A stretch of 63,848 nucleotides of DNA, the filler included, from Reclinomonas americana ATCC 50394 (Eukaryota): NCBI GenBank assembly GCA_048213135.1. It is 5 parts of 3 records of this genome, joined end to end, with 100 filler letters (N's around TTAATTAATTAA, not from the genome) between each part and the next. Parts side by side here need not be neighbours in the genome. Positions count along the whole stretch, not along the records: positions 1 to 29,486 come from PS015121.1; positions 29,587 to 43,282 come from PS015121.1; positions 43,383 to 52,139 come from PS015121.1; positions 52,240 to 59,908 come from PS015122.1; positions 60,009 to 63,848 come from PS015123.1. One strand, written 5' to 3'. Of the stretch, positions 801 to 63,848 are shown in pieces. Each line of letters opens with the position of its first letter. Position 1 is the first letter of the stretch. A model generated the notes under the pieces. That model did no database searches, was not told where the DNA came from, and worked only from the letters and a program-made list of their open reading frames with translations. Position numbers and translations under genes: made by a program.

Positions 801-3800
801 TTAGAGTCTTCGTGGGCGTGAGCGTGCGGCGTGCTCCTCCAGCATGGACAATGTGGTCAGCAGCTGTGAAGCCGACGGTCGTTTCGCCGCATTCTCGCTC
901 AAACAGACGGCCACCACTCGCCACATTTCGACACCGAGGGACGAGGGCCATTCGGTGACCGCTTCCTCATAGTCGGGTGGGTTGTCTGGGTCCTCGGCGA
1001 TCAGCTGCTTGACTCGTTCTGGCGCGGCCCCGGCCAACATCATGCGCCCCAGCACGAGACCGAATGCACTGGACCACAGAATAGATCGTCGGTGCTGCGT
1101 CAGCGATTCGAAAAGTGACAGACTGCACTGCACGGCAGACGCAACAACATGTCCACTGCAAACGACAATTTTCCAGAAGAGGCATACTCTGGATCAATGT
1201 ATGCTGCCGAGGAGACCATGTGCGCAGCTGCTACTGGCTGCAAGGACTGCAATGGAGCTGTCAGTTGAGTTACTTTTGCACAGGCGTGATGACGACTCAC
1301 GTGAGCAAGTGAGACACTGTCGGCGGCAACATCCAGTCGCGAGTGCGGCGGCAGTTGTACGGCCACTGTGCATGCGAGTTGTTGCTGTGAGAGTCACGGA
1401 GGCGATGCACTTCAAAGACCCATTGCGCAACATCCCAGGTTGGCCAGCACTGCCGATCCCGACGGCGAGATGAAGATGTTGACCGGCTGCAAGCATTCGT
1501 GACGTGAGTGCGTTGAAGATCAAAAAGTGCGCACACCTACTTGCCTTGATGTCACGATGTACGACACCGTTGCTGTCGACGGCAGAACACAATTGTCATC
1601 AGTCACAAAACTGTATTGCACTTCTCGTGATGCTGGAGGCACATCCGTACCTGTGCAGAAAAGCAAGACCCTTGCAGCATTGCACCATAATGTGCAACTT
1701 GTCGCGCACGTTCAGCATGTTCTCGTCGGCCAGCATGTGCTCGAGGTTGCGATCGCTGATGCTCTCAAGTTTAGTGGCACTCAGCAGTTAACTGCTACAT
1801 TGCGTCGACACTTACCGCACAGCCTTGAACACGAGGTACCGACGCTTGTTGTCCGTGGCCCACCCGAGCAGTCGAATAATGTAGGGGTGTCGCAGCTGAC
1901 CCAGCAGTTCGACCTGCACGTGCATCAGACAACCATGAGCTGGCGACATCACGCACACGCATGTTTGATGGCCGTCAAACCAACCTCACGATCAAATTCA
2001 GTTGCAGCCTTGTCAAGCGTTCGAATCGCCACAACACGTCCGCCGCGATTGTGCAGCTCACCACTATACCAATTGGATCCCTACAGTGCGACATGAACAA
2101 TCGCTGTCGTCCATCGTGCCCACACACTTTCTGTACGCACCACTCCAAGACGATTGCGGGACGAAAAGTCCGAGGTGGCCTCACGCAGCTCGCTCCACGC
2201 GTACTGCGCCAGCGCCATACCGCACATAGAAGAGCCGATGGATGAGTCACCGTCGCCAAACATGGCCGGCGACAGACTCTTCATCGTGTCACTGGTTGGT
2301 GGCTCGTCGGCATCACCATCTTCGTCATCATCGCCGCATGTGGACGGACTTCTGCTCGGCGCACTCCACGCAGGACTGGCGATGAGGCGACCGCGCGGCA
2401 CAGGACTTGCACCGCCGAGCACAGGGCTCACGCCACGCATGTCGACGCCGTTGGGAATGTTGGCCGCCATGCGCTCGCCACGTTCCCAGCGGCCCTCCCA
2501 CTTTTCGCCGCTCTGCGCAAAGTTGACAAGATTGAACAACGGGAATGACGTTCGCCACGCTGACCACAACTCTCCACGCCGCTCACCTTGTACGTGTACG
2601 TACCAGGTCCGTGGAACATACCGTCGCGGAATTCCTGCCACCAACAAGTCTTTGGTGAGATACGGTGAATTCAAAATCTTGATTGTCGCGCCACGCAACT
2701 CCGACATACACATCGCCGTTAGCAAAGCGCATGCAACCTGGTCCCCACGGGATGCCTTGCTTCCAGTCGCCCTTGTAGGTGCGTCCGTCCTTCCACACTT
2801 GCTCCCCGAAACCTGTCGGCCAACGTGATCAGTGATGAATGCTCCTCCAAGCACAGAGCATGCGCAGTACCTTCACGGACACCATGCTGCCAGTCACCAT
2901 TGTACTCCTCATCGTCTGCATTTCGGTACGTGCCGTGACCTGAACGCAACTGTGTCAGTATTTTAGCGAAACGTGTACGGTAATTGACTCGACATCATCA
3001 CACCGTGTCGAAGGCCGTCGTAGAACTCGCTGCGCAGCACGATAGAGTTCAGTGGATAGGCGTCGAGGAGAGATCGAGCATTGTAGGTGAGACGAACCCA
3101 GCGTAGCGACCACCGTCGGCCAGCGAGTGCGACCCGGTCCCATGAAACTTGTCGTCACGCCATTGCCCCTGATACAGTCTTCCGTCTGCACGCACAAGAA
3201 CAACATGAGAATGCAGACACATGCAGTGCTCTGGAAGGCAACACGTCAACACCAACCCGGCCACGTATGAGTTCCCTACACACACGCACAAATCAGTGCA
3301 CGGTTGCTTGCATGCACATCCTCGTTCACTCTCACGCAACGACGCCATCCATCTTGCCAAAGCGAAACTCGCCTACATACAGGCGACCATCGCGCCAGGT
3401 ATAGCTGCCCTCACCGTGGAACTCGTCTCCTCGGAAGCTGCCGTCGTACACATCACCGTTGGAGTGGCGCAGTATGCCTTTTCCGTGTCGCAAACCCTGT
3501 GTTGCAAAGACGCACGTGCGCAATCAGCACAGTTCCGATACGCTCTCTCTATCTATCTATCTATCTCTCTCTCTCTGTGTGTGTGTGTGTGCGTGACTGT
3601 CGGAGGCGTGCCAGCGGAACCAGACAAATATGCCACTCCAGAAAACAAAAACGCAACGTCGAGCATGGCGCCCGCGTATCGACTACCATCGCGGTACACC
3701 AGCTCCAAGTGCCGCCCGGTGAGTGCCCTGACTTGAACATCAGTCAGTGCCTCGCTGCGATCGGTGCCGCAGCCGCCGACGGTGACCACCGAGGTGTCGT

Positions 3801-3900
3801 CACTGAGAGCGTCTGAGGATCCGTCGCTGCCGGCCAGCGACGAAGGCGAGGCACTGCGTGTGTCATGACCTGCTGCTGACGCGGCGGTGGCGGTGGACAT
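801..3900 (-). CDS. MORN-repeat protein fused to an IRAK/RLK-Pelle-like (pseudo)kinase domain; multi-exon
   Basis: MORN repeats (GLRHGKGILRHSNGDVYDGSF, WRDGRLYVGEF, WKDGRTYKGDW), then YAWSELREATSDFSSRNRLG, VVAIR, LLGQLRHPYII, CKGLAFLH-SNGVVHRDIKPVNI, AYIDPEYASSGKLSFAVDMFAFGLVL, RPSA; ATG at 3900. Confidence 0.8.
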
Positions 3901-4131
3901 GGGTCTTGTCTTTTTTTCTCCTCTCGCCAGAAGCAAGAAATCGGAATTTTTGATCACAACGGTCGGTTTGTACATTTGTACACCCAAAAGACCGCCAGCG
4001 CCGCTGGTCTGCGTCCACAGCTCGTGCTCCGCCCGAGCGAACCCCGAGTAAGACTAATCCCGGTCTATCGTGGGCCCCGCGACACGCAGCGCTGCGGTTT
4101 GATAATTCTATGTTGCTCGTATCGCCGTAGG

Positions 4132-13324: not shown

Positions 13325-16300
13325 TCAAGCCACTGGTGCAGCCATCAATCGGCGCAGGCGCTTCTGGTGCTTGGCGGAGAGGTGTGCGGCGTATTGTTCC
13401 AGATTGACGCCCGAGGCTTGCAGGTGCTGGAGGTACTGCGCAGCCTTGCGGCCGGTCTCCTCAGTGATGAACTGCGAGCCCCACACGCTCGAGAAGACTT
13501 CCACCACTCGCGGCAGCGATTCCACGGCGGTGACCACCGGGTGTTGACTGAAGAGAAACAAACATGAGCAAACCAGCAACAACAACAACGACGACAAGAT
13601 GCATGCAACGAAACGATTCAATGAGGCCCATCAGCACGTCGTACACCTTCTTCGCCTCGCCCGGATCGCCCATCACTGGCAGATGGTTGAACCAGTACGA
13701 GAAGGTCTGCATGCGCTCATGTGAGTATCGCGGCACGGTGCACAACAAGAAAACAAAGTAAACGAGTTGGCTCACCTCGTCGGGATTGCTGAACGACTCC
13801 GGGTGGCATGTGAGCGCCCTCCACAGTCCGTTGACGGCGTTGCAGCGTGCGCCCTCAAACCTCCTAATTGAGTTGTGTGCCTCCTTGTCCGACATGCGAA
13901 CAAACAGCGGAATCAATGCTGCACATTCGCACTGTCAGCCCCAGCCACACTCCCCTCCCTGCTCTCGCCACCACTCGTCGTCACGCAACTGTCAGCACAC
14001 TGGCTCCACACCTCTGGCGGCGCGCGCTCCGCAAACAAACTGCAGCCGTACATCGAGGTCTGTCGAATCTCCTCCGAGTCGTCGGTGGTGTACGAGATCA
14101 GAGTCTGCAGAATGAACGGCGCATTCTCCGACACGACCGCGTTGGCGAACTCGATCAGGTCGCAGAACACGCACACGGCGGCCAGGCGGTACGCGTGCAC
14201 CGAGTCGGTCGACTAAAACCAGAGAGAGATATTAGATGCTGTGCAACGCACGCGGCTGATCATCCATTTTCTTCAACGCACCGCCATGGAGCACACGGCC
14301 TGCCAGAAGGTCTCGTAGAAGAACGGCAGGAATGTCTCGTGTGTCTTGATCAGGCCGCCGGTGAATTCCGACCACTGTCCAATGATCATGTTCTCGAACT
14401 CGAACCTGTCCTCAAAGGCATTCTCCTCCGCACCCTCCGCCAACTCCTCCGCCATGTCAGCTGTCGAGAGTGCGACATGAGTCAAACACACAGACACGCA
14501 CGCGCATGCGGCGACACATGCACGAACCCTGCAACTTCTCGCGACGCTCAGAGCTCGCAGTCAGGAGGAAGTTGAGCATCTCCGTCAATNNNNNNNNNNN
14601 NNNNNNNNNNNNNNNNNNNNNNNNNNNNNNNNNNNNNNNNNNNNNNNNNNNNNNNNNNNNNNGTCGTCATCTGCGCCTCCGACAAGAAGTTTCTGCCAGA
14701 CACATCCACCGCCTGATCGAAACCAGTTCAGCACACGATGATCACAAAAAACGAAACAACAGATCCAAACGACAAACCTCACGCATCGAGTCAATGGCAG
14801 TGACTTGTGCCTCGATCTCGTGCTCCTTGGTGATCTCTTGCACAATGTCGTTGAAGAAACGGTTGAAGACGCCAATCACTTGCTGCTGATCGCCGGTGGC
14901 CTCGCGCACAGCCTTCAGCAGCGCCGGCATGAGGGTGCATGCGGTTTGGCGCACCTCTGCAAATCCATAACAATGAGTTTCCATCATGCAGCACACTCTA
15001 CCGAGGACGACGTACCAGGCAAGAAACGGAAGTTCATCAGCGGAATGCACGCCTGCAGCGTCTCCTCAANNNNNNNNNNNNNNNNNNNNTGAACTCGGCG
15101 TAGCCACCCTCCAGCGTTGTCACGTAGTCCAACAGCTTGTCCAGCGCCGCCGCCTTTTCCTGCAGCTCCGTGGTTCGGATCGACACACGACGCACACCTA
15201 CGCGTAACCAAGTGACATTATCAGCCAAAATGCCGTGAGACAATCAATCGCAGAGAGACGGGGGGGCACTCACCGACACCCTTGAACTCGAATGTCATGG
15301 TGCCCCAGCCGTCCTCTGGGTCCGGCTCTGGCTCATCGCCACACGTCACGAGCATCTCGGTCTCGCGGCGAACGCACACCAGCAGGCCCGGGATTACAAA
15401 GCGCAGGTACGGCACAAAGTCCTCCTTGAGCACCGAGCAGAGGCGAGTGTAGGCCTGCTGGATGAGCTCCGTCTCCGGGTCCTCGTACTTCAAGTGAGCG
15501 GCTGGAACATTGACAAATCAGTGACACACTCGTATCGCAAGAAGAAATGTGACTCCCCGCCCACTCACCAACGTCGCCCATCACTTGCATCAAGCCGAGC
15601 GCATCATTGATGCACATCTCCTTGCCGACGGCGCAGCACACCAGCGACATGGCCTCAAAGATGCGGCCGCGCAGCTCCTGATCTCGCACCGTCGTGCACG
15701 ACGCCAACATCGTCTTCAGCACGTGCATCAGCGACTCGTAGTACTGCGTGCAGATAGAGAGGGTGAGGAACCGACTGACTGGGAATGAAACAGATGCATT
15801 CCCAACACACACATACCGGTCCAAAGTGGCCCTCTGAGCACTGCGCCAGCGACGAGATGGACTTGACACCCTCCTCGCGCACCATGTGCACCGGCGACTC
15901 CAGCACCGTCACCAGCTTGGTGAGCAGCGGGTCGACAAACTCATCCAGTGTCGACGTCACAAACTCAGTGTCGGCCAGGTCGAAGAAGTTTTGCACAATC
16001 GACGCAGCCTGCGCCTGCACGCGAACGACCGGATCCTCCATGGTCTGGATCATGCTGTTCAGCAGCGGCTCGTAAAAGTCATGCTGCATCCTCGGTGAAA
16101 TGTCGATGCAGAACTGGCCAATCGTGCCCAGTGCCGCCCACCGCACGTGCATTTGCGGGTCCGACACGCGATCCACAATCAGACTGTGCACGCACGAATG
16201 AGAGACGAGCGCGGAATCATCTCACGCGTGTGACCAAGACGCAACGGAATGAGGTTCTGCAGCTCGCTCTCAAACTCGGCAGTGCACCCCTCGGCAATGA

Positions 16301-18540: not shown

Positions 18541-20688
<2,148 letters not shown>

Positions 20689-23563: not shown

Positions 23564-26500
23564 ATGTCAGTGAGTGCGGTTCACGAGCAGGTTCTGCGCG
23601 GGCTGGAGAGTGCAGTGAGCGGGGCAGAAGGCGACATCGACTTGCATGTGTTGCATGAGTGTGTGCGACGATGCAAGAACTTGGTGGTCGGCAATCGGAA
23701 GCAGAAGGAGGCGTTGAGTGCGCGCGCGCTGCCACTGTTGTTGAGTGTGGTGGGGAGGTTGAGCGCCGACGTGCATGTGAGGTCAGTGGTGGGGGTGGGG
23801 GCGCACAAGTGAATCTGTGAATGAGTGTGATTGAGAGATATAGAGTGTGGGTGCGTGCGTGAGAGAGAGCATGTGTGTGAGTGTGTGAGAGAGTGGGTAC
23901 TGTGTGCGCGCGTGTGCGTGTGCGCGAGTGGGTGTGACGACATGTCGTTCCAATTCCTCATTGTCGTCGACACAGTCTCGTGGAAGACATTGTGGTGCAG
24001 GCATCGACCTGCCTCGGCAGCTTTGCTTGCAGTTTCGCACGCTCTCCCTCACCCTCTTCCGCCCTCCCTCCCGCTTGTCGCTCACACGTGTGATCGATTG
24101 CAGCGCCGCAGCCGGTCGACGCTTGCATTCCTGAGGATGCGGTGGATGTGCTGCTGCAGCTGCTGGTGATGCCGGAGGCGTCGAGCAAGGTGATTGAGTC
24201 GGACACGCGCACGCTGAAGTTGTGGTACCAGCATGTGTCGGCGCTGACGATTGCGCCGTTTGTGCGAGTTGCGTGAGGGCGAGGATTGTGCTCAGTGGAG
24301 ACGATGGGCTGGCTGATTGTGTGTGTGTGTGTGGCGCAGCATCCCGATGCAGTGCTGCGATTGACTGAGTTGTTGGAGTCGACGCGCGCGCACAGTGGGA
24401 GCGATCAGACGCAGCAGAATGTGGCGGCGTTGGTGAGCCGAGTGGTGTCGTTGCCGGAGTCGAGTGTCGTGTTTGACTCGCAGCGTCTGTTTGATGCCGT
24501 GCTGCGTCTGGTGTACTCAGAGTCGCCCAACGTTGCGTGTTGTTTTCCCCCTTTACATTTCTCTTTCTCTGTGTGTCGCCCGCATTCTCATCTCGCTCCG
24601 TTGCCACAGCTGCAAGAGGCTGGACTCGGCACGCTCGCCAGTCTGATCGCACGTGGTGATGCCAGCAGCACGCAGCAGCTGCTGCAGTCGTCGGCGGTGC
24701 TACGTGAGCACGTGACGGTGGCGCGAGTGAGCGATCGCGACGCTGGACCGTCGTCATCGTCATCGTCTTCGTCGGTGCCGTCGGCGGCGAGTGCCGTCGC
24801 CAGTCTGCAGGACGCTCTCGGTTCACTCGTGAAGAGCAAGCAACCGCGTACACGCAGTCTGGCGTGCGCATGGTGCGTGTGCTATGAGAGCAGAGGTGCA
24901 CTGGTGCGCGGTGATGCACTCACACCACACTCGCCCGATCGATCAGTTTGGCCAGCATGCGACCGCGACCGTCACCCGCGGCGCTGATGTTTGGCGTGCT
25001 GCCGGCACTGATGAAGCTCCTCTCCGATCAGGTGCCGTTCATCGAAGAAATACCCTTTATTCTGAGTTGCGTACGTGGCACCCGAGTCGTCACGCTCCGG
25101 CATCGTCGCCACTCACTGTCGCCCACAACCAGGCACGCTGGTGCGATCGGACGTGGAGTTGCAGAGGGCGGCGTTGAATGGTGATGTGATTGCCAAGGTG
25201 GCACCGTTGCTGGAGAATCCGTTGCCGCGCGCGCGTGAAGGCGTGCTGCGCCTGCTGGCCGCACTCTCGGCCGAACGTGAGGAGGGTCGCAAGGCCGTGA
25301 TCGACGCGCAGTTGGTTCCGCGCGTGGTGGCGGCGTTGAGTGACACCTCGTCGGCACGAGTGCGCGCCGCTGCCTGCGACTGCTCTCGGTGTCTGTCGCG
25401 GTCCACCAAGTACCTACGCACCACGCTTGTACAGGAGGGCATTGTGGCGCCACTGATGACGGTGAGTGCTGCGATGGGGAGAGGGGTGAAGAGGGGAGAG
25501 AGCGCTGAGTGTGTGTGCATATCTGCCAGCTTCTGGATGACGCCGACACCGAGGTTCGCAACTTGTGCCTGGCGGCGCTGTGCAATCTGGTGGTCGACTT
25601 TTCGCCGTTGAAGACCACGTTTGTGGATAATGGTGGCGTGGCGCGTGTGGCGGTGCTCCTGGAGGTTTGTGTACGACTTTGATGACACACGAGGTGATGG
25701 ATCTCGCTCACTTCGTGACATGCAGCGATCACAGCCGAGTGCTGTGCGTGAGCACGCTGTGTGGCTGTTGAAGAATCTGCTGTTCCACGCCGGCGACGCC
25801 GTCAAGGAGAACGTGTTGTCGCACGTGGGCTTTGATCACATTTTCAGGTTCATCTCTCATGTTTGGGTCACCATCCCACCGCACATGCCCTCAATCTCGT
25901 GCTCGCTTGTAGATTGTTGGAGGATAGCGACAAGCGAGTGGCGATTCAAGCCATCAAGCTGGTGCGCAACTTGATGTCGCCCGATGCGGCCAACATTGCC
26001 GCCGTGCTGGAGGCCGAGAATGGTGAACTGTTTGGCTTGCTGAAGCGGATCGCGCGGTCGGCGGTGGGCAGAGCAAATCGCAGTGTGACCTCTGATGTAG
26101 AGATGCAAGACGCGTCGGCGGCGTCGAGCATGGAGGTGGAGCAGCGTGGCGGCGAGGCGGAGGAGGACGATGAGGAGGAGGAAGATGACGGAGAGGGAGG
26201 AAGAGGAATGGCTGTGTCGCCACAGGGCGGCAGCAGCAGCAGTGCTGCGGTGGGCACGGCAACGTCGCCTGTGGTCGCCAGTGACGGCAGTCTGCGTGAA
26301 GAGCTGCTGTCGCAGGTGCTCTTCTGCTTCACCAATATTGCGTCGGGCAGTCAGCGACAAAAGGACGTGCTCTGCAACGATGCCGAGTGTGTGCGCATTC
26401 TATTATCTGCACTGGTGAGTAGGCGAGAGCGAATAGAGATGGGTGTGTGTGTGTGCGTGAAGAGCCGAACTGACCGCAGTTTGCTGTGCGCAGAAGCACA

Positions 26501-29840: not shown

Positions 29841-32546
29841 GGCCTCACAACGGGACATTGATCGCAAGTTTCGCCGTCTGCTCCAGCAGCTGCATCCCGA
29901 TCGATTTCCGCATGAGACAGCTGAGGAGCGCGAGAAACGCACCAAGGAGTACCAGGAGGTGTTGTCGGCTGCAGAGGTGAGGGTGTGCTGGAGGAGTCTG
30001 CGTCACAGTTCATTTCCTCACGTGTCATCCGTCTCGCTCAGATTCTGCGCGACCCACAAAAACGCCTGCGGTACGACTACTTTGGACTGGTGGGCGTCAA
30101 CTGGCAGGTGGCCACTCGTGTAAAGACGAAAGAAGAGGTGCTTTGTGTCGATTCCCCATTGTCGGTGGCGATGCTGGTACTCACACCACATCTCGGTCCG
30201 CCGCAGATGCGTGAAGAATTTGTAAAGGAGACGATGAAGAAGCGGCGACAGGAGAGCAAGCGAGCGCTGAATGCGCGTGGCACTGTGCGAGTTGCGTTCC
30301 TCTTTGCCACTATGTGCATCGTTTGTGATCCTCACTCTTCTGTTGTTGAGCAGGCGATCATTGATATTGAGTGCCTGTACGATCCATACGACCTCGACAA
30401 TCCCAAATGGTACCCAGACGTGGATGGCGTTGACGTGAACCAGAGCTTTGAGGTGAGCGCTGTCGTTTCGTGGCTGGCTGGCTGGATGCCGATCATCTTT
30501 TGACTCAACAAACAACAACGCAGCACCGCATTGGTGAGCACGGTCGGCTGAAGGTGCACGGCGCGGCAGCCATGATTGAGACCCGTGGATGGGGCCGCGG
30601 CGGTGTCGAGTACTCGCACTACTTTCCGTCGGGCATAGAGGCAGGAGTTGCGTTGTTGTTATTTTTTACATGGTGAAGCTAGTGGCGTGTCTCTCTCCCT
30701 CTCTCATCATCCATTGGCAATCGTCGCAGGTGTCACTGCGTGTGGGCACTGCGCGCGTCTTCAATCGTGTTGGCACGTGGGTACGAGTCCCACTCAGCAC
30801 CAAGGCGTTGCGTCCCCGATCAGCTCCTCTTTCCCCTCTTCCTGACACTCAACTGTTTGTGTGTGTGTGTGTGCTGTCCAACGAGTAGCACCGGCACGGT
30901 CGAGCTGTCATACAATCAGTTGTTTGGCTTTGGTGTCGGCCTCGGGGCGCGACACTCTGTCGGTTCTCACACGCAGGTTGGTCTCGTTTTCGCACGCACA
31001 CACACACACACACATCGTACCACCACCTTCTCACGCGCACCGCTCCGTGCAGACGCACATCGACGTGCTGTTGGGGAAACTGCACAGCTTCCACGTCGGC
31101 GCCGTCCATCGATTCGGCGACAAGCACGTCGTGTCGTTGTCGGGCAAGGTGGCGTGTTGTATGATTGCTCGTCACCATTGTCATCTTGCCGCCCTGCATT
31201 CTGACAATCCGACACAGACGGGCAGCATGGGCAGTGAGATCCGCACCAAGTACGTGTACCAGGCCTCGGAGCACGAAATGGTCGACGGACAGGTGTGTCT
31301 CTCACTCGCACACACTCTCTGCCGCCTCTCTCGCATGGCGCACACTCACACTGGCATCACCAGGTGGCCTGGCTCTTTGGCAAAGGCCCCGAGGCGAGAG
31401 TCGGCGGATCCCGTGCTCTCGGCTTGCGGTCTTCAATCGGCGCCGATGTGCACATTGGTGCTGGGCGTGACACGGTATTGCGCACATAGTTGCGTTTCAC
31501 CCGCTGTCTCCCTGTTTTTGTTGCGTCCAACAGCCCTTGTAACACTTGTTTGGTAGCTTGGAGCGCGGTTCGCAGACGCTCGAGGTCGATTCCAAGGTGG
31601 CGTCGGCAAACAAATTCTCTTGGTACAGAACTGGTCTGGCGGTGGGTCTTCCGCTCCTGCTCTACACCTGCGCGAACCAGCTCTTCTTCAGACCTGTAGA
31701 AAAGATCCGAGCGGATGAGTTGCGTCCAGTGGTCGGCCAGTGCGACGCCTGAGCTCACCCTCTCACGCTGTTTTCGATGAGCTGCAGGAGTGATGCCGCG
31801 CACGATGACTCGTTTGTGGAGCGTGTGGCTGCTGCTCGGGAACGCGCCGCCGGCGCGGTCGATGACATGCGTGTAGAATATGAGCGAATAGTGCTGGAGC
31901 AGGATCGAAGAGAGCAATGTTGCGTGCATGGACGACGCACGCACCAACGTGCACTGTCACAACCTGTCTCATTCGAGGCTTTGTTGTCTGTCGATGCGCA
32001 GACGACCAGAATGGTGGCTTGGTGATCCTGGTGGCCAACTACGGCGAAGCACGCGCTGTCCGAGACGAAGAGGATGAAGAAGGTGCAGTGAGCGCATTGT
32101 TGTTGTTGTTGTTTTCACGACCAGAAGGAGGTGAGCTGATGATGATGTGCCCGGGCCGACTGCAGAGCCGTCCTCCTCGGACACTGTGCCTCCTATCTGG
32201 TGTGTCACCATCCCGCTGCAAATCATGGTCGACGACGGCATGATCATTATCCGTGCGTCTGTCTTTGTCTGTCTCCGAGTGCTCCCCACCTGCGTGGTGC
32301 ACTAATCTGTGATCTGCTGCAGCCGGCGGTCGCACCAAGAGCGAACTCCCTGGTTTCTTTGACCCGGCGCCCGGAAAGCGCAAGCTTCTCCGCGTACTCT
32401 ACCGCCACCACGGTCAAAGACACGAGGTCATTGTTGGTGACTTGGACCAACTGAGATTGCCCGATCGGAGTTGCGTACGTCGTTGTGTGGACGATGGAAC
32501 AAAGCGACTGACAGCTTGTTGTGCCACAGTGCACCTGGTGACGTGA
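29841..32546 (+). CDS. DNAJC11: DnaJ homolog subfamily C member 11 (5' end missing or unresolved)
   Basis: J domain ASQRDIDRKFRRLLQQLHPD...ILRDPQKRLRYDYFG; later GGLVILVANYG, VTIPLQIMVDDG, KSELPGFFDPAPGKRKLLRVLYRH (DUF3395-type C-terminus). Confidence 0.9.
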
Positions 32547-41309: not shown

Positions 41310-43251
41310 ATGAGCAGTTCGGGGTATCACAAGTTGCACATGGAGCCGCGTCCAATGGCGCAGAACTTGGTGAGTGAGAGAAAGAGAGACACACAGACAG
41401 AGATAGAGACATAGAACAACCTCCTTTACTCACACACACACACAGAGCGCGCACACACACACAACACACACAAGAAAAAACATGACAGAATAACTGCATC
41501 TTTTTTGTGTCAGTCGTATCTTTTCACTGGTCACTGCTCTCTCACTCTGTCACACGCACGCACACACACTGTTCTCTCTCTTCTCTCTCACACACACTGC
41601 CTCCCTCACTCTCTCTCTCTGTCATCTTTCTCTGATCTCTCTATCGCTCACTCTCTCTCTCTCTATCATACACAGTCACTCACAACCTCACTCACTCGCA
41701 TTTTCTCACTCAAGTCTCTCTCCCAGTCTCTCTCCTTTCTCTGATCTCTCACTCACCCACTCGCTCCCTCTATTGCACACTCACCCGCCTTTCTTCTTTA
41801 TATCTTCTCTCTCTCTCTCCCCTCTCCTCCCTATCTCACACTCCCCTTCTCCCTCACCTCTCTCTTTTCCATCTCTCTCTCTCTCCACAGGATCACTTCT
41901 ACGACCTTGCTGCGCGTCACGTGCCGGCGACTGGCGGCTTCCTGAAGGTGATTCGCATGCCGGAGCTGATCTACAAGACGTCGTTCCCGCTGATCAAGGA
42001 CGACGGCGGCATGGAAGTGATTGAGGCGTTCCGCGTCATCCACTCGGACATTTCGCGACCGACCAAGGGCGGACTTGTGATTGACGAGTCGGTGACGCAG
42101 GATGAGATGGAGACTCTGGCCGCCGTCAATAGCTTCCGAGTTGAGTGGTGAAGGGGGGAAGGGAGGGGGAGAGAGGGGGGGTGAGAGATGTGTTTGTGTG
42201 CGTGTGTGTGTATGCGTGCGTGTTTCACTCTCTTGCTGCCTTAGATCCTTGCGCTGTCGTGCGTGGGAGGTATCACGCATCTCGTTTGTGTGGATCTCTC
42301 TCGTTTGCACGCACAGAGAAAATAGAGTCACGTGCGCAGAGAGAGAGAGAAAAAGTGAGTCAGTCGGAAATAGAGACGAGAGTTCAGCAAGGCAGGCGCA
42401 AGACCGCCAGCAGAGATGCACGTGCAGATCGAGTTGATTCATCTCTTGTGCCTTGTCAGACACACGCACTAAGAGAACGAGAGAGTCAGCAAGAGTTCAG
42501 CAAGCAGATGCGAAGTCGCACGCGAAGATGCACATACGAAGGAGTCTGTCCAGCTCGCGTGTCGTCACACACGTTCACGCAAAGAGATGCGCATCGTGTT
42601 TTGAGTGAGCTGCGCGCAGACATCCACCTTTCAATGTGCATCGTAATCTCTTTCCTCTCTCAAGTTTGTGTGTTTGCTTTCGGAGTCCGAACTCTCTTGC
42701 ATACAGTCTCTGTCTTTGTTCTTGTATCCTCGATCCCTCTTCCCCCCTCCTCTCTCTCTCTCGCTTCTCTTCCAGTTCTTTCGTTCTTTGATTTCTCAGT
42801 CACCCCTCTTCTCCTTCTTCCTCCCCCCTCCCTCTCTCTCTTGCTTCTCTTTCATTTCTTTCATTCTTTTTTGTTCTCAGTCACCCCCCTTCCCCTACTT
42901 CCCCCTCTGATGCTCACTGTTTTCCTTCGCACAGTTTGCTCTGGCCGACATCCCGTGGGGTGGTGCCAAGGGCGGCATCAAGATCAACAAGGCGAAGTTT
43001 TCGAGTGCGTTGCTTTTCGTGCCTGCATGAGCTGTGTTTCCCATCTTGTCACTCACTCACTCACCCGGCGTGCGCACAGGCCGTCAGATTCACCGCGTTT
43101 GCCGCTTGTACGCCCAAGATTTGATTAATCACTCATACCTGGGCCCGTCTGTTGGTTTGGTGAGTGTGTGTTTGCCGCCAACAGTGTTGCGCAGTTCGTG
43201 TGGAGCTGACTGATGGTGTGCAGATTTCCCCTGATTACGGCTGCGATCAAC
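41310..43251 (+). CDS. Divergent Glu/Leu/Phe/Val dehydrogenase (glutamate dehydrogenase-like), 3' end lost at gap
   Basis: FPLIKDDGGMEVIEAFRVIHS..RPTKGG...VTQDEMETLA...ADIPWGGAKGGIKIN...YLGPSVGLISPDYG. Confidence 0.85.
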
Positions 43252-43326: not shown

Positions 43327-43338
43327 TTAATTAATTAA
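43327..43338. other. Artificial scaffold linker TTAATTAATTAA
   Basis: All-frame stop linker flanked by Ns. Confidence 0.95.
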
Positions 43339-45241: not shown

Positions 45242-48200
45242 CACGCGATGTGAAGTAGTTGCGCAGAATGGCCATGATGCAGCGGCGATCCCACGTGTCC
45301 GTCACACGACCACCATAGTTGATTTCGCCGAGCACGTACAGCAGCGAGTCCCACGGAATCTTGGTCTGCTCGTCGAGCAACATGCGCAGCCATTGCTGCG
45401 ACACGTCGAGATCCGAGTCGTTGAACTCGTACTTGACGTTCCAGCCGAGCGGTCCAAACTTCTTGCGGTCCTGAATAATGGCGTGGAAGAACGACAGACC
45501 AAAGAGCAGCTTGAGGAACGCGTGGCGCTTGGACGAGCCGTCCGCAAACGTCTCGCCCTCCGAGAAGCTGCCAAAGAACTCGGCCGACAAGCCATTGTAC
45601 GAGCGCGCCAAGTTGGCTGGTGGTTGGCACAAGATATGAGCAACGGAGAACACAGATAATGAAGCTCTCCCCCTCCCCTCTCCAAAACGTACCCTTCAGG
45701 CCCTTTGGTGGCTCCACAGTCAGCTTCACACCATTCTGCAGAATCGGAATGGGGAACTCATTCGAGGGCATGGAGGTCAGCCAGAGACGGAAGTCCACGT
45801 TGACGCGCACGGAGCCGGAGGCCTTGGCGGCTGCCAACTCGGCAATCTTCTTCTCCACTTCAGGCAAGAAGGAGACGGCCTGCGCGTATGCGTTACACAC
45901 ACATGTGAGCAACTCACATTTCATAACATGACACGCAGGAGAGAGAAACACAAGACGCACCACATGGCAGTTCTGCAACAACACCCACTCGCCATCCTGC
46001 TTCGCTTCCTCAATGTTGCGCTTCGCAATCTCCTCCTGACCCTGTCCGAGGGACACGATACGCAGCGTCTTGTTGCGCTCCGCGGCGAAGCGCATGACAA
46101 TGCTGGTCGGATCGGCGCCGGTCGACAGAATAAAGATGCACGGCGTCGAAATGTCCATGCTCTCGTGCGTCTGTGCAAGGTCGAACGGCGGCGACTTGAT
46201 AAAGTGCTCGCCAAACGACGTCTCCACAAAGTTCAACACCGAGAAGTACAGCTGCGTCGACACACAGTCGTGAGATTCGCGGGCGACAACAAGCAACACA
46301 CAAGGCAGTCGAGAAGCACGCACCTTCTCCTCGCGCCATGCGCGCACCAGCAACAATCGCTGGAAACCCGACAGCTGCGTATTCCAGTTCACGCCACCCA
46401 CAGCCGGCGTCGGCTTGGTGTGGATGCGATCGTCGGCAGAGTACTCCAACCACGCGTCGATATTGGCAGCGACGTTTGCCGTGATGCCTTGGAATTGCTG
46501 CAAGGACGTGTGAGATCACCGCCCACACATATACACACGATATCTCTTTCTGCTCGCGCCACCACACACCGGAATGTTCTGCTCCGCTGCGAGCAGCAGC
46601 TCCCACGTGCGCTCTCGAATGGCTTGCGGTGCCGGATTCGGCACCATCTTGGTGCGATCCACCATGGCCTGACCGCGCAGGAAGAGCGCCCAGTCGGCTG
46701 GCGAAATGGCCAGCGATTGACGCAGCACCGATGTGCACATCAAGAACGAGAAGATGGGCTTGTGGCGCTCAAAGAGACCACGGCACACCGACGTGTACAC
46801 CGTCTCCGTGATGTTCGTAATGTACATGCGACTCTTGATGTGAATGTCGTCGGGGGCGTCGGTGCGGCGCATGGTGTTGAGGAAGAGGGCCTTGAAGAAC
46901 TCCAGCGAGTACTGGTACATCGGATCGATGCTGGCCAAGTCGGCCACCACAAAGTACAGAATCGAGCCACGAATGGCGATTGGTCTGAACTCTTCACGAG
47001 CCTCGTCTGCAAGCAACACCAGAAATACAAGAATGAGTATCACCCACGCTGTTGCACCACGAGCACGTCGTCACGCAACTGATCTTCGCCTCGGTCTTCT
47101 CGGCCTCGGCGACACGCTCAGTGATGAGCTCCGAAGTGACCTTGGACTCCTCCAGCGTCTTGATGAGCTTCTCATTGTCGAGAATCTCACCCTCCTCGTT
47201 GGAGAGCATGTGCAGAATGTCGTTTTCGATCTCCACCAACTGCTTCTTGTCGGCAGCCACCTTCAACACCAACTTGTTCTTCATGTCCTCCAGCTCCGGA
47301 CGCTCCTCTTGCACCACATCGGCCAAAAGCTGGTCCTCCAAACCTGCGCATCCCGGATGTGAGTTGTTCACGCCATTTCACGCACCGCGCGCCCGCCTCA
47401 CACAAACCATTGGTGGTGACTGTAAAGTTGATCACCGTGACCTTGATGCACACCTCGGGCAGGTAGTGCGGGTTGGCCATCTTGGTCGTCATGTAGAAGC
47501 GGAAGTTCTTGTCATAGTCCACATCCTTGCCGTCGAAGAAGAGCACCTTGCGGCCGCCCTTCAGCTTGATCACCTGCTTCAACAGCAGGGTCTCCAGCGC
47601 CGGGTCGAGGAACTCGCCCATGTCTTCGCACAGCACGGGCTGACCAATGAGAATGGCGTTCTTGATCACCTGCAGGTAGTTGTCACCACCCATCTTGATG
47701 ATCTTCAGGCCGTTCTTGGCTTCCATGGCACGAATCCACTTGTTGGCCTGCAAAAAACAAACTCAGTGGACGTCACCCAACAAATAAAGCAGACCGGCGT
47801 CACACACACACACACACCTGGCCTTGCGGGTCAATCATGAGTGGCCAGCGACGCGAGCGAGTGGTGAGCACGGCGTTGTTGATGGACAGCGGGTCATTCG
47901 GGAGACCCCAGATCTGCCAGTCGCGTACTTCGACCTGATCCGAGAGAACCTTGGCCAGATCGAACTTGGGCGACACAGTGATGCCCTGCTCGCGGCACTT
48001 GTTGCGCCACATCTCCGCCAGCTCCTGTCGGTAGGAGCCAGTAAAGGCACCGTAGTAGGCCACACAGGCGGCAGCCACAAAGATATCGCCCGGCAGATCC
48101 TTGATCTGGTTCTCGTACTCGACCACCGTCTCCTGCCAGCGCACCTTGGCGCCGGCCAGCGAGTTCGTCAGCTTGCCGGCACGCTCCAAGCGCGCCTCGC

Positions 48201-51200
48201 TGAGGATGATTTGCGCCTCCAGATCCTGCTGCTCCTTGGTGGTGCGCTCCAGCAGCGACTCCAGCGCATTCAGCTTGTTCTGAATCTCGCGCAGTTCGGA
48301 CTGCTTCACGGCCAGCACCGCTTGCATCTCCGACACCTGCTGCTGGGCGGCCATCAGGCGTTGACGCTTCGGCTCCACCTCCTTGCTGACGTGCGCATAC
48401 GTGTTGAGCGCGCGCACCCAGATGCACAGCGTCTTGGCGGCCTCCGACACGCCGCCGACAATCTCCGGCTTGAAGTTCTCGTCGTTGATGTAGACCTGGA
48501 GGCGGCGCAGCGTGCTGTCGGTGATGTCGTCCTTCGGGAAGTTCTTGCAGTTGGTGAGGAACTGCGCGTTCGTCAGGTACTTCTTGCACGCCATTTCCCA
48601 GTCGGGCTTGTTCTCGCCAAAGAGAATCAGCACAGCATCCATGACCAGCTTCACGAGCGGCGGCGGTGAGGCGTAGCCCTTCACCTCGGCCACGGCGCCC
48701 TTGTTGAGCGCGTTCAGCGCCTTGTTGGCGGCCTCCAGAGCCGGCAGCGCCTCGGCCAAATCGGCCTCGGCCGACGTCTTGATGGCTTCGGCCTCACGCG
48801 TCTTCTCATTGACCACGGCCTCATCGGCGGCGACGGCCTGCTGCGTCTTGGCAGCGTCGGCACGCTCCACATCGACGCGCGCCAGCAGCTCCTTGGTTTC
48901 CACCGACTTGACCTTCAGCACCGGCTGCAGCTTCTTCAGGTTCTCCTCCATGACCGTGATCTTGGACTCGGCGTCGGCCAAAATGTCGAGACCCTTGCGC
49001 AGGCGGTCGCGCGCTTTGCGCAGTTCGCCCGTCTTGGCCTTCAACAGCTTGCCGTAGGTGTTGATGAACTCCAGGTAGCTCGTCGGCGTCACGTAAAAGT
49101 GGCGGCGCAACTCGGCATAGAAACGATCGGCCATGCGTGCCACCGACTCGTGCACCACCACGCACAGCGCCGAGTACTTGGGCACCAGCTCCACATCCAC
49201 CACCTCCTTGGTGGTGAGATGCTGTTGCGCCACGGCCAGCAGCGCATCGGCCGGCCACTCGTCGAACCAATCAATGGTGCAGCAGTTGACCAACGACGGG
49301 AACATGCGCACACTGAGACGAGAAGAGGATGAGAAGATCGCAAAAAAAGCAGCAAGACACACACACACACAATGCGGACGAACCGTGTGCGGAACGAGTC
49401 GCCGACAGGACTCATGCAGAGCACCATGTGCAAGTTCTCACGCACACGGTGAATGAAGAACGAGTACACAGCGTCACGTGTCTCCGGCAGTCCGGCCTTG
49501 CGGCACGCCTCACGAGTGTCCGCAATGCACTTTTCCTTCTCGTCGGGGTCGAACAGATTCGGCACCTCACCCTGAGCACGCACAACGATGAGTACCACGA
49601 TGAAGAGACGGGCCGCAATGAGACAAAAAACGCACCGAGTTGAGAATGTTGTTGAGATCCTCGACAAACGCCTCGTTGGTGATCTGCGAGTCGCTAAAGA
49701 TGAAGACCAGCGGGTTGCCCTCGACGCCGACCTTGATGTACATCTGCTTGAGGTCTTCGCGGAAGTCCTTCAGCTGGTAATCGCGCTTCATGCTGATCTG
49801 GTACGTGTTGTAGCCGCACATGAAAGCGGCCAGCTTGGTCAGACTGCGCTTGCCACTACCACCGACGCCGACCAGCAGGGCATTGCCACGCGGCTGGCGC
49901 ACAATGCGCGCAATGCGACACACGTGCTGTACGGCTGCAACACACAACAATATACATGGCGTCAAAAACACAATGTGCGGCCCGCGCCAGACACCTGTAC
50001 ATGATGAGCACGCACCTTGTGAGAAGAAGACCAGCTTCATCTTCTGGTTCTTGGCGATGCAAAAGTCCTCGAGGTAGTCGTCCAGCAGACGCGGCAACAC
50101 CGCCGGATCCGTCACCTCCTCGTAGTAGCGATCGGCAATGTCGGCCTCTGGGTGCAAAAAGTCGACAAACAGCACCGGGCGGTCGCCGAAAATGTCCTCC
50201 TCCTGCCAGCTCAGGTTGAGTTGGCGACGAGCCAACTCCAACACCATGTCGCAGAAGGTGCGTCGGTCGCTGTCGGAGATGAGGCGGTCGTAGAAGCTGC
50301 GCATGCTCTCGTGCACCCACAGCCGGCCGAATGTTTCGAGGTTGCTGACGAAACGCGGGTTGACTTGCATCATGCCCTGGAAGATCTTGGCCAGATCACG
50401 CAGGTTGAAGGTGTAGTGGCTCTTGCTCGGCGTCGGCAGCAACTCGCGGCGGATGGTGAGGAAGAGTTCCACACTGGCGCGCACCACGTTGCTCGCCTTC
50501 TCGCGAATGTCAATGACGAACGGCTTGAGGAAACCGGCGAGGATCGAGGTGAAGATGCGCTGCATCGACTCGGCCGACAGCTCCGGCACGCACAGCGCAT
50601 GGAAGAAGCGCAGCAGGCGAGGAGTGGTCTCATTGCGGCCACCACCCGGCGGACCGCAGGCCGCCGTCACCGTCACGTCCTCCACACCCTTCCACGACAG
50701 ATCGGTGCGATCGTAGAAGCCGCCCATGCCAAGCAGCTGGCGAACGAGTTCCACAGGCGGCTGCGCACCGAATGTCTCCTTTTGCGGCATGTTCAGATCG
50801 TCGATAAAGACCACCATGCGCTTGCCAGGCGGCGGACCAATCATGCCCTGTGGAGGCGAATGAATGGTCAGTAAAGAGGTGCAAGGTAAAGAAAGGCTCG
50901 ATTAGATTATTTCTCACCTTTGGTCTCTTGTCGAGCTTGGACTCGATCATTTCCTGCGTGCGACCGGAGCTGGTCTGTGCCGAGAACTGCACCGTGGTGT
51001 ACACAATGCCGAGGTCCTCGGCGCGGCGCTGGAACATGTCGACAATCATCACCGACTTGCCGACGCCAGTGTTGCCGTTGACCAGCACCGGCTTGTTGAG
51101 GCGCAGCAGCGACTCGACAATAAATGTGGTGCGGACCGTGTCGACCGTGGGCACCAGAATCTGGAAGAACGACTGCTCCGGTCGGAAGGTGAACGCCGGC

Positions 51201-52064
51201 ACCAGCTTCTCCCACTTGACGAATGTGCGCTCGGCAAAGTCAATCGTAAAGTCGTACACGGTGCCGCCAACCGGCAGGCCAATCGACTCGAACTGCTTTT
51301 GCGCGAATCCGTCGAAAAGCTCTTGCGAGTTGGTGTTGACGTTGCCGCCGAGAGACCACACGTAGCAGAAGACGAACATCATGTTGATCATCTTGACCGC
51401 CTGGCGATTGACTTCGGTGTTCTCGGCCGAGTACTCGATGCGCAGCTTGGAGTCGCTGAGGAAGAGCGCAACCATCAGGTCGCACAGGCTCTGCACCAGG
51501 TTCTGGTACGGCATCACCACGTCTTGCTTGCACTGCACGGAGAGAGCGAAGAGAATGTGAGTTACGGGGCAGGAAAACAGAGGTGCATGGGAAAAAAACG
51601 CAACCTCCTTCTCCACAAAGCGAATGCCCGCCTCGACGTGATCCTCAAACAGCTGATTCAGATGCTGAATATGCTCCGCCGCAATGTGCTGGCGCGCGGC
51701 CGTGGCCAGCCACGTCTGCACCACTGGTCGCCAGCCGAGATCGTTGGGGTCAATGTACACCATACCGCATCGACTGACGGTGGCCGGCGAGGCGACGGCC
51801 AAGTCTTGCACCTCGAACAGCAGACGAATGGTGTTGTTGAGCTTGATGCGCTCGGCATTGTCGAGGCACAGCAGCTTGGAGTCATCCAGCACGCTGTTCA
51901 TACTCTCGATCCACAACGTATCGACGGGGCCGTCAAACACAATCCACTTGATGTCGTTGGTGATGTCCTTGACGCACGTACGCGCAATCTTCGGCACAAT
52001 GCCGTCGAACCACTCTTGCGTCAGCAGATTGTAGGCACCGTACAGCTCGCCATATGTGATACTC
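45242..52064 (-). CDS. Axonemal inner-arm dynein heavy chain, DNAH6-like (AAA2-AAA6 fragment)
   Basis: [92 protein letters not shown], stalk/[45 protein letters not shown]. Confidence 0.95.
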
Positions 52065-52183
52065 TGGAGGGAGGAGAGCACACACACATGAGATTCACAC
52101 CAGAAGAAGCAGGTGCGGCAGTCGGCGCGCGAGCGGTATNNNNNNNNNNNNNNNNNNNNNNNNNNNNNNNNNNNNNNNNNNNN

Positions 52184-52195
52184 TTAATTAATTAA
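52184..52195. other. Artificial scaffold linker TTAATTAATTAA
   Basis: All-frame stop linker flanked by Ns. Confidence 0.95.
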
Positions 52196-52239
52196 NNNNN
52201 NNNNNNNNNNNNNNNNNNNNNNNNNNNNNNNNNNNNNNN

Positions 52240-59700: not shown

Positions 59701-59898
59701 CGTGACGATGCTATTATGCGCCACTGCCTGCCATCGAAGGGCTCCATCGAGAAGCTGCCACACGCGAAGCGTCGAATCTCCCGCACCACCACTTGCCACC
59801 AGCAGTCCGTCGGCACTCACGGCCACCGCACAAACGCTACACTGCGGGTGCGCCTGCAACACATGGAGCGTCTCGTACGGCGCCACCGTACACCACAC
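56746..59898 (-). CDS. WD40-repeat protein (multiple beta-propellers)
   Basis: About 18 repeats of GHTxxVxxVxxTPDGxxxxSGSxDxTVRVW in one 1050-aa ORF. Confidence 0.93.
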   Translation of the reverse strand: MWCTVAPYETLHVLQAHPQCSVCAVAVSADGLLVASGGAGDSTLRVWQLLDGALRWQAVAHNSIVTSAAFSPDVQHLVSGGSDGHVCIWSVETGEVVRRIPTADKRFVLSVAFTPDCRNVVFGGGNRLVYVYSIADGLSHIELKGERHAVRSVSVTPDGRHVVCGGNDRTVWVWSLATGEVVHRFEGHTDEVQAVTITPDSLHIVSGSKDRTARVWVLATGEEVRRLEGHERNVNGIITLPGRFLATCSNDATMRVWYLPSGEEVKVFRMHATAVDGIKALVATADNRLLVSGGWDNYLVLWSHLSSRPVRVFSGHRQPVTALCLLDGDRFVASAAADGTVRMWAMPSAHLGHVRSSLSFGQLEDVPQPEAVRHCCMRSHEGRVETLVATPDGKLLLSAGDDKLIRAWPTQAAQEHVLRHVDESEDAAVDSGDAAVQPLWVLEGHTGNVMSLVVTSDGQHLLSGAKDCTVRVWSLAHGQQVHCVRALHTNGVNCVCLTPDSRRFLTAGDDDTLLLWRLSFSSAITDSGEPVAECEAEVVSRLSGHTGAVYSVAVTSDGLRAISGGNDRTLRVWILPAPADDCASPPATRERHDSGSAAAGSASTAAFDAAASALHLPPLFVETTTLSTKRLVGHRKAVRATVAMPDGLHAVSGGDDGLLIAWSLSTRRAVAHLSTGTRPVRALAVTPDGQRLLSVSKHRQVDVWNVARGAAECELSGHENDVTTVVVSADGRYAVTGAADCTVRLWDLHEAGALVSTMTSHSLSVSGVAVGPKNSCIVSCSWDRTVRVWDFCVDKPSVTSSKVLTGHTEWVGAVVCTPDGVHAVSGGGDKTLRVWHLESGREVKCLMLPPTMRVRALAITPPDGRFVVVGGDSQSLSVWSLQTDMEVCHFDVSTFGRVSALAVTPDGRSVLCGGTDSSLRMWSLEAAAVVAEVQLQHAREQEMAPAAPAEAEEGRASRPLRKQPVMFKPTVVKDPIVFGRSGEACPVERLRNNIFVHVRQLRCASPTSCSSDGLLERIIGSALPNFRRCTWDGSHGVSPAVVLRLDKIGE

Positions 59899-59952
59899 AC
59901 GAACAGTGNNNNNNNNNNNNNNNNNNNNNNNNNNNNNNNNNNNNNNNNNNNN

Positions 59953-59964
59953 TTAATTAATTAA
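59953..59964. other. Artificial scaffold linker TTAATTAATTAA
   Basis: All-frame stop linker flanked by Ns. Confidence 0.95.
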
Positions 59965-60029
59965 NNNNNNNNNNNNNNNNNNNNNNNNNNNNNNNNNNNN
60001 NNNNNNNNCACTACTCTCACACACACACA

Positions 60030-62270: not shown

Positions 62271-62534
62271 GTGTACAGCGCCGCAGAACTGTGCAAGGAG
62301 GTGGCTTCGTTGGTGACTGGGATGCGTTGCGCAGCTCGTGCGGAGGCACACGATGGTGGCGTCAGTGCGAATGAGGAAATTAGGAAAGTATGTGATGGGG
62401 ACGTGCGTGTATTGATAGCAGGAGAGCCGCATCCAGAGGTGGAGTGCGAGCAGGAGGTGTTTGCCATGCTGGCCGAAAGGCCCGATCTTCGGCTGCAGAT
62501 GACCGACGGGGGCACTCCGAGTGTCGACGAGTGA
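62271..62534 (+). CDS. Possible terminal coding exon of an unknown gene
   Basis: Coding-like composition (AELCKEVASLV...EQEVFAMLAERPDLRLQM) after a TACAG acceptor; no family recognised. Confidence 0.3.
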   Translation: MYSAAELCKEVASLVTGMRCAARAEAHDGGVSANEEIRKVCDGDVRVLIAGEPHPEVECEQEVFAMLAERPDLRLQMTDGGTPSVDE

Positions 62535-63216
62535 CGTCAATACAGATGACGTCAGTCTGCGAACAGGCAATGGAAGACTCCGGGAACCGCATGACCGGTT
62601 AGTCACTGTATGGCTGCGGCGTCTGCGGTCAAGCTGAACATGAATTACATTCTCACGATTGGCGTGTCGGAAATACATTGACAGGATCAAATATCCGCGC
62701 CGGAGCGAGCCGGTGCACCTTGCATTCTTTCAGCTCGCCACGGAGCCGAACTCGCGTCCCCCACCGTCGACTGATTGACCTGCATCACTCCTACCTCCTC
62801 CTCTCCCGCTGCGGTGAGTGGCAGTGGTCACGTTTTCGCACACATGCGAGTCACTTGCATTGGAGACAGAATTGTCGTGAAATGTTACTCTGTCGCACTC
62901 TTTCAAACTCTCACTCTCGCACCTATCACCGTTCTCGTAGCGTGTTGCGAACTTCGCTGCGGTGAACACACGACTGCACACGTTGCGGTGGTTTCGTGGA
63001 GTGATTTGTAACATGTATCGGGTTCGAAGAAAGTGGGTTCGAAAACTCGCTTCTGTCGCCTTTCATTCTTCCGTCACTTTCTCTAAAATCGACACCTCAC
63101 ACAGTGCACGCTGCAGTGCGACCACCTGCACTCACTCATGTTGCTCCGCGTTGTCACACAGAGCCCGACGACCAATTTCGTCAACAACACACCGCGCACA
63201 TATATCGACGAGTTTT

Positions 63217-63848
63217 ATGAATCTCGCGTCAGGAAAGCACGCCAGTCAATCATCGCCGCGAGTGATCGTGACTGTGCTACTGCTTGTAATCACTTGCCTT
63301 GCGTGCACCGGTGAGGAGCATCGTGCGTGTTGCAAGTTTTGCGGTGTTTTCGCACTGGCTAAAGTCGTCCACACGATGACTCAGCGGCGGCGTCTCAGAC
63401 TGTGTCCTCGACGACTGTGTCGAGTGTCACGCACCAGGGTGTCAAGCTCAGCGCTACCATCGACCCCCAGGATGCCGCCGGCACATTGTCGGCGTACTTT
63501 GAGGTGTTGCCGACCTCCAATGCATCGGATCTCGACACTGTCAAGACGACAAGCACTATCGAGAATCGCGTTGTGTTGAATATTGATGTTGCGTTATGAA
63601 AGGTCGCTCCATTTCCTGCGACAAGGCTTGCTTTGCGGTTTCACAAGCACCGCACCTCGTCTATAGGGCTGGGATATGGACTGGAGCAGCAACATCTATC
63701 TCGGGTGCGCAATCGCAGCGATGCACGACGCCAATATAGTGGATCACTTCCGAGCACAGCAGCTTATTCTGCGTGTGATGTGTGTATGCATACAGATACG
63801 GTGGTGGCGAAGTTCTGGCGAGAGTGAACGTGACTGGCGACGTGGAGA
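63217..63848 (+). CDS. Secreted/surface protein (signal peptide, beta-rich), runs off window
   Basis: MNLASG...VIVTVLLLVITCLACT + spliced AAASQTVSSTTVSSVTHQGVKLSATI...NID|GWDMDWSSNIYLG|YGGGEVLARVNV. Confidence 0.6.

Follow-up and report, generated by a model that had tools for sequence, protein, structure and literature searches.

Does a protist nucleus make routine use of two kinds of 5' splice site that differ by a displacement of a single base? The question arises from a stretch of nuclear DNA from Reclinomonas americana ATCC 50394 (assembly GCA_048213135.1), which is 63,848 nucleotides long with filler included, has a G+C content of about 57%, and is called the window below. Alongside introns that begin with GTGCGT and similar hexamers, this DNA contains many candidate introns that begin with GTTGCGT or a close relative, in which the familiar downstream bases appear one position later. 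An earlier note on this DNA had listed 37 such "shifted" donors in nearly every gene, had described many of them as fixed by protein homology, and had proposed that they constitute a major class. It had gone on to suggest a modified spliceosome (a variant U1 5' end, a variant U6 ACAGA box, or an altered U1C, LUC7, Prp8, or SNRNP27K) or two snRNA isoforms side by side.

At 33 of the 37 listed positions the motif GTT[GTA][AC]GT is present exactly where and on the strand that had been claimed, and at the remaining four the motif is slightly altered, position +7 not being T (24032, GTTTCGC; 29390, GTTGCGA; 1431, GTTGCGC; and 34752 on the minus strand, GTTGCGC). The expectation that the motif would exceed its chance frequency also held. 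GTTKMGT matches both strands of the window 65 times in total, against a mean of 34.9 and a maximum of 51 in 100 dinucleotide shuffles, and GTTGCGT by itself was counted 40 times against 14.8 expected under an order-3 Markov model. The motif is moreover strongly oriented. A donor-agnostic gene prediction by dynamic programming (DP) supplied a strand map that was made without any donor motif and that covers 46.5 of the 63.8 kb. On this map, 31 GTTGCGT sites are sense, 2 are antisense, and 7 are unmapped, and the listed sites divide into 30 sense, 0 antisense, and 7 unmapped. The inserted base is T and only T, with sense/antisense counts of 2/0 for GTAGCGT, 4/2 for GTCGCGT, and 11/6 for GTGGCGT, compared with 31/2 for GTTGCGT. 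A census of sense minus antisense counts over all donor types was dropped, because the GT-, GA-, and CT-rich repeats of the introns are strand-biased themselves. Repeats of the (CT)n, (CA)n, and (TCAC)n type are abundant in the introns of the window and cause donor-like words to be strand-biased for reasons that have nothing to do with splicing, as with GTGAGT (19 sense, 35 antisense).

Individual junctions were placed by protein homology in several of the genes. The window encodes an axonemal dynein heavy chain (DNAH6-like), a 1053-residue WD40 protein, an LCAT/LPLA2-like lipase, a protein kinase, a MORN-repeat kinase, an armadillo-repeat (ARMC8-like) protein, a DNAJC11-like protein, an importin-5-like protein, and a glutamate dehydrogenase (GDH). 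Introns were located with a protein-to-genome spliced aligner that allowed GT...AG boundaries only and contained no donor profile; a scan of junction peptides by BLAST produced many false "introns" within exons, and spliced-alignment DP was used in its place. Database homologs reach no more than 48% identity for the dynein (45243-52105, minus strand) and 31% for the importin (12700-17600, minus strand), the latter with one homolog only. No protein of the organism itself, or close to it, came up among the database hits, which points to a source that lacks annotation and either branches deeply or has been poorly sampled. In the dynein gene, 12 introns were placed with 14 homologs, and two of them have shifted donors; the other ten donors are GTGCGT (four), GTGTGT (two), GTGAGA, GTTCGT, GTTTGT, and GTACGT. 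In the N-terminal part of the importin gene, the single homolog gave six clean introns, one of which begins with the GTTGCGT at 16245. These homology-placed introns are 62 to 81 nt long and carry a CTCAC/CTGAC/CTCAT-like motif about 15 to 25 nt upstream of a CAG acceptor. For the lipase, exon translations were searched against solved structures, with the LPLA2 chain 4x90_A as the reference. Neither lipase junction can slide, and the one at 19849 was also called by the donor-agnostic DP.

The description of the listed donors as anchored by homology was thus accurate for a part of them. The donors at 51604 and 47079 (dynein), 16245 (importin), 19588 and 19849 (lipase), and 42140 (GDH) are fixed at or near residue level (Table 1). 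In the DNAJC11-like gene, for which the alignments to 14 divergent homologs are noisy, the donors at 30291 (6/14 homologs), 31489 (5/14), 31719 (7/14), and 31919 (2/14) were recovered with weaker support, and the site at 32470 lies just beyond the end of the C-terminal domain, where it has no anchor. Other DNAJC11 donors of the normal class were placed at 29977 (11/14) and 30138 (8/14). An average-BLOSUM profile of 21 DNAJC11 homologs was tried and set aside, as it aligned the C terminus alone. The anchors that had been claimed for 13614 and 13989 were not reproduced: N runs interrupt that C-terminal part of the importin gene, where the one homolog (31% identity) picked 14011>13881 instead. 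A homolog search for the ARMC8-like gene found none, and the segments flanking the MORN-kinase sites 1145 and 1431 gave no Pfam match.

Table 1. Introns with shifted or normal donors in the window (lowercase, exon bases; the cut lies between lowercase and uppercase letters)
Gene	Class and donor	Coordinates	Strand	Evidence
Axonemal dynein heavy chain	Shifted, gag/GTTGCGT	51533..51604	-	Donor in 10/14 homologs, 8 with the same acceptor
Dynein	Shifted, tca/GTTGCGT	47007..47079	-	11/14 homologs; alternative offset by 5 nt, 47074/47002 (GTGACG), in 2; one homolog skipped the region
Importin-5-like	Shifted, tcc/GTTGCGT	16184..16245	-	Single homolog (P0121), with both intron penalties; also donor-agnostic DP
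LCAT/LPLA2-like	Shifted, cct/GTTTCGT	19588..19655	+	4x90_A residues 128 (RGAP) and 129 (YDWR) on either side; junction cannot slide
LCAT/LPLA2-like	Shifted, cac/GTTGCGT	19849..19910	+	4x90_A: exon 3 to residue 190, split codon 191, exon 4 from 192 (VxLGAPW)
GDH	Shifted, cga/GTTGAGT; 795 nt	42140..42934	+	8qf0_A residue 123 upstream (exon to 42139), 124 downstream (exon from 42935)
DNAJC11-like	Shifted, cga/GTTGCGT	30291..30353	+	6/14 divergent homologs, 5 with the same acceptor; also donor-agnostic DP
DNAJC11-like	Shifted, ata/GTTGCGT	31489..31556	+	5/14 homologs
DNAJC11-like	Shifted, tga/GTTGCGT	31719..31787	+	7/14 homologs; acceptor variable (31781, 31787, or 31790)
Armadillo-repeat (ARMC8-like)	Shifted (predicted), aac/GTTGCGT	24532..24609	+	Donor-agnostic DP; 3' score 13.6
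Armadillo-repeat	Shifted (predicted), tga/GTTGCGT	25066..25132	+	Donor-agnostic DP; 3' score 14.8; Arm repeat in next exon
Dynein	Normal, aag/GTGCGT	49935..50015	-	13/14 homologs
Dynein	Normal, tcg/GTGCGT	49572..49635	-	14/14 homologs
DNAJC11-like	Normal, tcc/GTGCGT; among the few without G at -1	32253..32322	+	10/14 homologs; Pfam DnaJ-like_C11_C continuous across the junction

Two of the tabulated introns are unusual in themselves. The GDH intron is about 10 times the usual length, is packed with low-complexity sequence rich in G/A and in GT, and has an acceptor preceded by ...tgctcactgttttccttcgcacag. The DNAJC11 intron that starts at 31489 contains a second GTTGCGT at 31520, a possible alternative donor, and ends in TAG, not CAG.

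Support that does not depend on gene models came from the 3' ends. A model of branch site plus acceptor was trained on 18 homology-placed introns, 12 of which score at least 12 by leave-one-out, and a 3' signal was sought 45 to 130 nt downstream of each of the 7,979 GT sites in the window. A signal of at least 12 follows 18 of the 40 GTTGCGT sites, compared with 12.4% of "other" GT sites (P = 3.4e-7), and no other 7-mer in the window is as significant; the corresponding counts are 25/68 for the GTT class overall and 112/593 for GT[GAT][ACT]GT. With the cutoff lowered to 10, about the 75th percentile of all GT sites, a signal lies within the same distance of 29 of the 37 listed donors. The donor-agnostic DP, which reproduced the exact boundaries of 9 of 15 held-out homology introns, called 21 of the 37. 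Its 158 introns comprise 34 with GTNNGT, 22 of the GTT class, and 102 in neither class, and these last are probably errors for the most part. Three further predictors were kept out of all counts: a gene DP based on codon usage only was too weak, a self-trained DP drifted to 287 training introns (358 in genes scoring >30), and a self-trained table of donor 5-mers fitted rare words too closely and lifted recall by a single intron, from 9 to 10 of 15. Judged from the genomic evidence of orientation, protein continuity, and 3' signals, the GTTGCGT-type sites are real donors in this window.

How common they are varies with the method. The dynein and importin genes, in which homology placed the full set of introns without reference to what had been claimed, give a shifted share of 3/18. 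Donor-agnostic prediction gives 22 of 56 classed donors, and the excess of 3' signals gives about 30% (about 30 shifted and 70 normal donors), which is a rough estimate. Shifted donors therefore make up about 17 to 39% of the donors in the window, depending on the method. The share of "roughly a third" put forward in the earlier note lies within this range, in its upper half.

The base composition around the cut bears on how such sites might be recognized. The comparison used 25 shifted and 37 normal introns, predicted by DP on the mapped strand and pooled with the homology-placed ones. The exon side agrees with the proposal of a shifted register: position -1 is G in 31 of the 37 normal donors but in only 2 of the 25 shifted ones, where A (12), C (7), and T (4) take its place. 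The difference persists in the DP-only set (28/34 versus 2/20; Fisher P = 2.8e-7), and an alignment of the shifted exon flank to the normal-class profile with a displacement of one base is favored by 45 bits. Since normal donors with the full GTGCGT keep G at -1 in 7 of 9 cases (P = 2e-4 against the 2/25), the lack of G in shifted donors is not merely compensated by a strong intron side. The base A stands at -1 in 17 of 40 GTTGCGT sites, compared with 27 of 140 control GTTGC[ACT] sites (P = 0.006), an enrichment to be expected if the base at -1 becomes the U10 partner, opposite the U1 nucleotide whose usual counterpart is -2. On the intron side, positions +3 to +7 of shifted donors read T, G (23/25), C (24/25), G, and T (22/25), and the modal normal sequence is TGCGT. 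GUUGCGU and G/GUGCGU match at six of seven positions, and the organism's own consensus fits a shifted site better one base downstream. In six junctions that are set by protein continuity, the GT-AG intron nevertheless starts at the GU rather than at the place the consensus implies.

The account with the best support, to which we give slightly better than an even chance, is that these are major-spliceosome GT-AG introns in which the usual U1-binding heptamer would be read out of step by one base. G/GUGCGU is the common form of the normal donor, with an exon G at -1 and GU at +5/+6, and the second class is /GUUGCGU; aligned on UGCGU, the two heptamers differ at a single position, G versus U. The first G of a shifted intron would stand where a normal donor has its -1 G, U+2 would lie opposite the U1 base to which G+1 otherwise pairs, and U+3 to U+7 equal the normal +2 to +6, so that U1 would dock one base deeper into the intron. 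From this we infer that U1 pairs in a displaced register and has left by the time the cut site is chosen, when the need for GU at the start of the intron would set the cut during the hand-over to U5, U6, and Prp8. A more ambitious form of this account, which we hold tentatively and would place just short of even, is that two U1 docking registers one base apart are in routine use, that about a quarter of introns are cut one base upstream of the position implied by the U1 helix, and that recognition and choice of the cut are uncoupled genome-wide, whether by a single standard U1 or by two isoforms with C or A opposite +2. A single standard U1 in two registers, a pair of U1 isoforms with different bases opposite +2, and an alteration of U6 or of a protein factor are all compatible with the data.

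Several points weigh against reading the heptamer out of step. G is scarce before GTT in any case (11.4% before GTTGC[ACT]), and the 2 of 40 at GTTGCGT is not significantly lower (P = 0.37), so that the informative point is that G at -1 is not enriched, rather than that it is depleted. Both sets of introns are small and come in part from a weak predictor, with 9/15 held-out introns exact and 102/158 unclassed. Shifted donors are much less varied than normal ones, with nearly only GCG at +4 to +6. A pure shift alone does not predict such narrowness; the narrowness itself suggests that shifted sites need the strongest downstream pairing. U6 would face GCG and not CGU at +4 to +6, for which the account offers no explanation. 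To call one class "canonical" relative to U1 presumes the usual CC at U1 positions 8 and 9; a scan of the window with Rfam gave no match to any family, small nuclear RNAs included. Finally, the evidence for the junctions comes from DNA and protein sequence.

Of the competing explanations, the one that fares best is that GTT donors follow an independent second consensus in the canonical register, served by a lineage-specific component such as a U1 isoform that has A where C would stand opposite +2, an altered U6 box, or a protein of the LUC7 or U1C type. Such a consensus would push to an extreme the known division of 5' splice sites into exon-side sites (U5 loop 1, "left-handed") and intron-side sites (U6 ACAGA, "right-handed"), as set out in the accounts of two major classes that we drew on (PMC9803359, PMC11732430, PMC11842720). 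The resemblance is evident, as one class here leans on G at -1 and the other has only a strong intron side, nearly invariant and without an exon-side signal. A report of a diplonemid with two U1 genes that differ at their 5' ends (PMC12621601) lends the idea a precedent and makes U1 isoforms worth testing. The published exon-side and intron-side classes share one register, as far as those accounts describe them, whereas the intron-side consensus here is displaced by one base. Exon-side and intron-side strength are indeed anticorrelated in the window, but the consensus is displaced and the GTGCGT donors keep their -1 G as noted above. If the two consensuses were independent, the presence of TGCGT in both, one base apart, would be a coincidence, and we consider an independent second consensus rather unlikely.

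A bulged register is less likely again, though it has the advantage of a proven counterpart. In this arrangement G+1 and U+2 would pair canonically, one U of +2/+3 would be bulged, and GCGU would pair as usual; the motif does look like the normal hexamer with one extra U beside another U, and a +2/+3 bulge is a proven register in humans according to Tan et al. (2016, PMC4856993). The sites share with that human register (Roca et al. 2012, via PMC4856993 and PMC9311317) a single extra nucleotide near +2/+3. However, a bulge keeps its pairing on the exon side. A bulge here would still let an exon G at -1 pair, and the weaker helix should need that G more, yet it is found at the low frequency given above in shifted donors and at a high one in normal donors, GTGCGT donors included. 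Nor is any base other than T used as the bulge. The lack of a preference for G at -1, the insertion of T only, and the A at -1 together favor the shifted over the bulged register.

It is very improbable that most of the listed sites are not used as donors, the motif being enriched for some other reason and the gene models wrong. In favor of such caution, homology pins down just 6 of the 37 sites to the residue or close to it, and several claimed anchors failed to reproduce. The strand bias, the association with 3' signals, and the calls of a predictor that knew nothing of donors all speak against it, and each homology test that had a clear answer agreed with the claim.

Nothing at the 3' end separates the two classes. 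Median intron length is 68 nt for shifted and 70 nt for normal introns (P = 0.91), the branch motif (CTCAC/CTCAT/CTGAC type) lies about 19 nt versus about 17 nt from the intron end, C occupies position -3 of the acceptor in 23/25 versus 31/37, and interior base composition is alike. The matching length, branch motif, and acceptor thus give no sign of a second machinery at the 3' end. An all-against-all blastn comparison of the 62 intron bodies gave only 7 matches, which are 15 to 22 nt long, of low complexity, and spread across both classes, with no whole-intron similarity that would mark an introner family. U12-type introns have an RTATCCTT donor and a TCCTTRAY branch site. An origin of the GTT introns from an introner-like mobile element, or their assignment to the minor (U12) spliceosome, is hardly credible, in spite of the many near-identical intron starts and the one 2.3-kb gene that holds eight GTTGCGT: the bodies show no similarity, the donors differ from RTATCCTT, and in branch motif and length these introns equal normal ones.

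Other features of the window concern its construction and its genes. Seven N runs have the form N44-TTAATTAATTAA-N44, including those at 29487-29586, 43283-43382, 52140-52239, and 59909-60008, and the TTAATTAATTAA between the N44 blocks is a linker with a stop in all frames. Gaps of this form indicate that the assembly consists of concatenated contigs, and the ATG1-like kinase, dynein, and WD40 genes are truncated there. The WD40 gene (56749-59907, minus strand) has an open frame of 1053 residues with about 15 WD40 repeats and is intronless over 3.1 kb in intron-dense surroundings. The segment 32313-32543 (plus strand), which encodes the C-terminal domain of the DNAJC11-like protein, finds its best matches (proteins P0122-P0130) in non-DNAJC11 proteins that contain 3 to 10 tandem copies of the domain each.

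The nearest known parallel to a heptamer read one base out of step is the shifted register of human U1, which Tan et al. (2016, PMC4856993) describe as an established pairing mode; in their account, all validated noncanonical registers together make up about 1.5% of 201,541 human 5' splice sites. The human shifted (+1) sites (Roca and Krainer 2009, cited in PMC4856993) likewise start with GU, otherwise fit the consensus one base downstream, and are cut away from the position given by the U1 helix. By the same source, the human register was proven with suppressor U1s, whereas the displacement here is read from sequence, and a set of registers that is marginal in humans contrasts with one heptamer that accounts for the 17 to 39% share estimated above and that keeps U at +3 with a single mismatch. 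A different likeness is with Ostreococcus, for which Irimia and Roy (2008, PMC2483917) reported strict GTGCG(T/C) donors and an ACTGAC branch site: both are GC-rich protists whose introns are short, open with a GTGCGT-type donor, and carry the branch site near the 3' end. Unlike the intron-poor Ostreococcus, the window is rich in introns, encodes an axonemal dynein, and has more varied donors (GTGAGT, GTTCGT, GTACGT, and GTGTGT). We know of no shifted donor class in Ostreococcus. A literature search confined to the papers themselves found no organism with such a register as a major class. Searches for the heptamer GTTGCGT/GUUGCGU returned only unrelated primers, aptamers, and microRNAs, and those for GTGCGT splice sites returned the Ostreococcus and Micromonas papers only.

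The shifted U1 register has so far been a matter of a handful of human sites and has been treated as an oddity. If it is indeed a main class in R. americana, the spliceosome would tolerate, or would have adapted to, a systematic offset of one base between the docking of U1 and the cut, and the genome would offer thousands of natural test cases for the hand-over of a splice site from U1 to U5 and U6. Gene-finding software that has learned only one donor profile would then place a large share of this lineage's exon ends wrongly.

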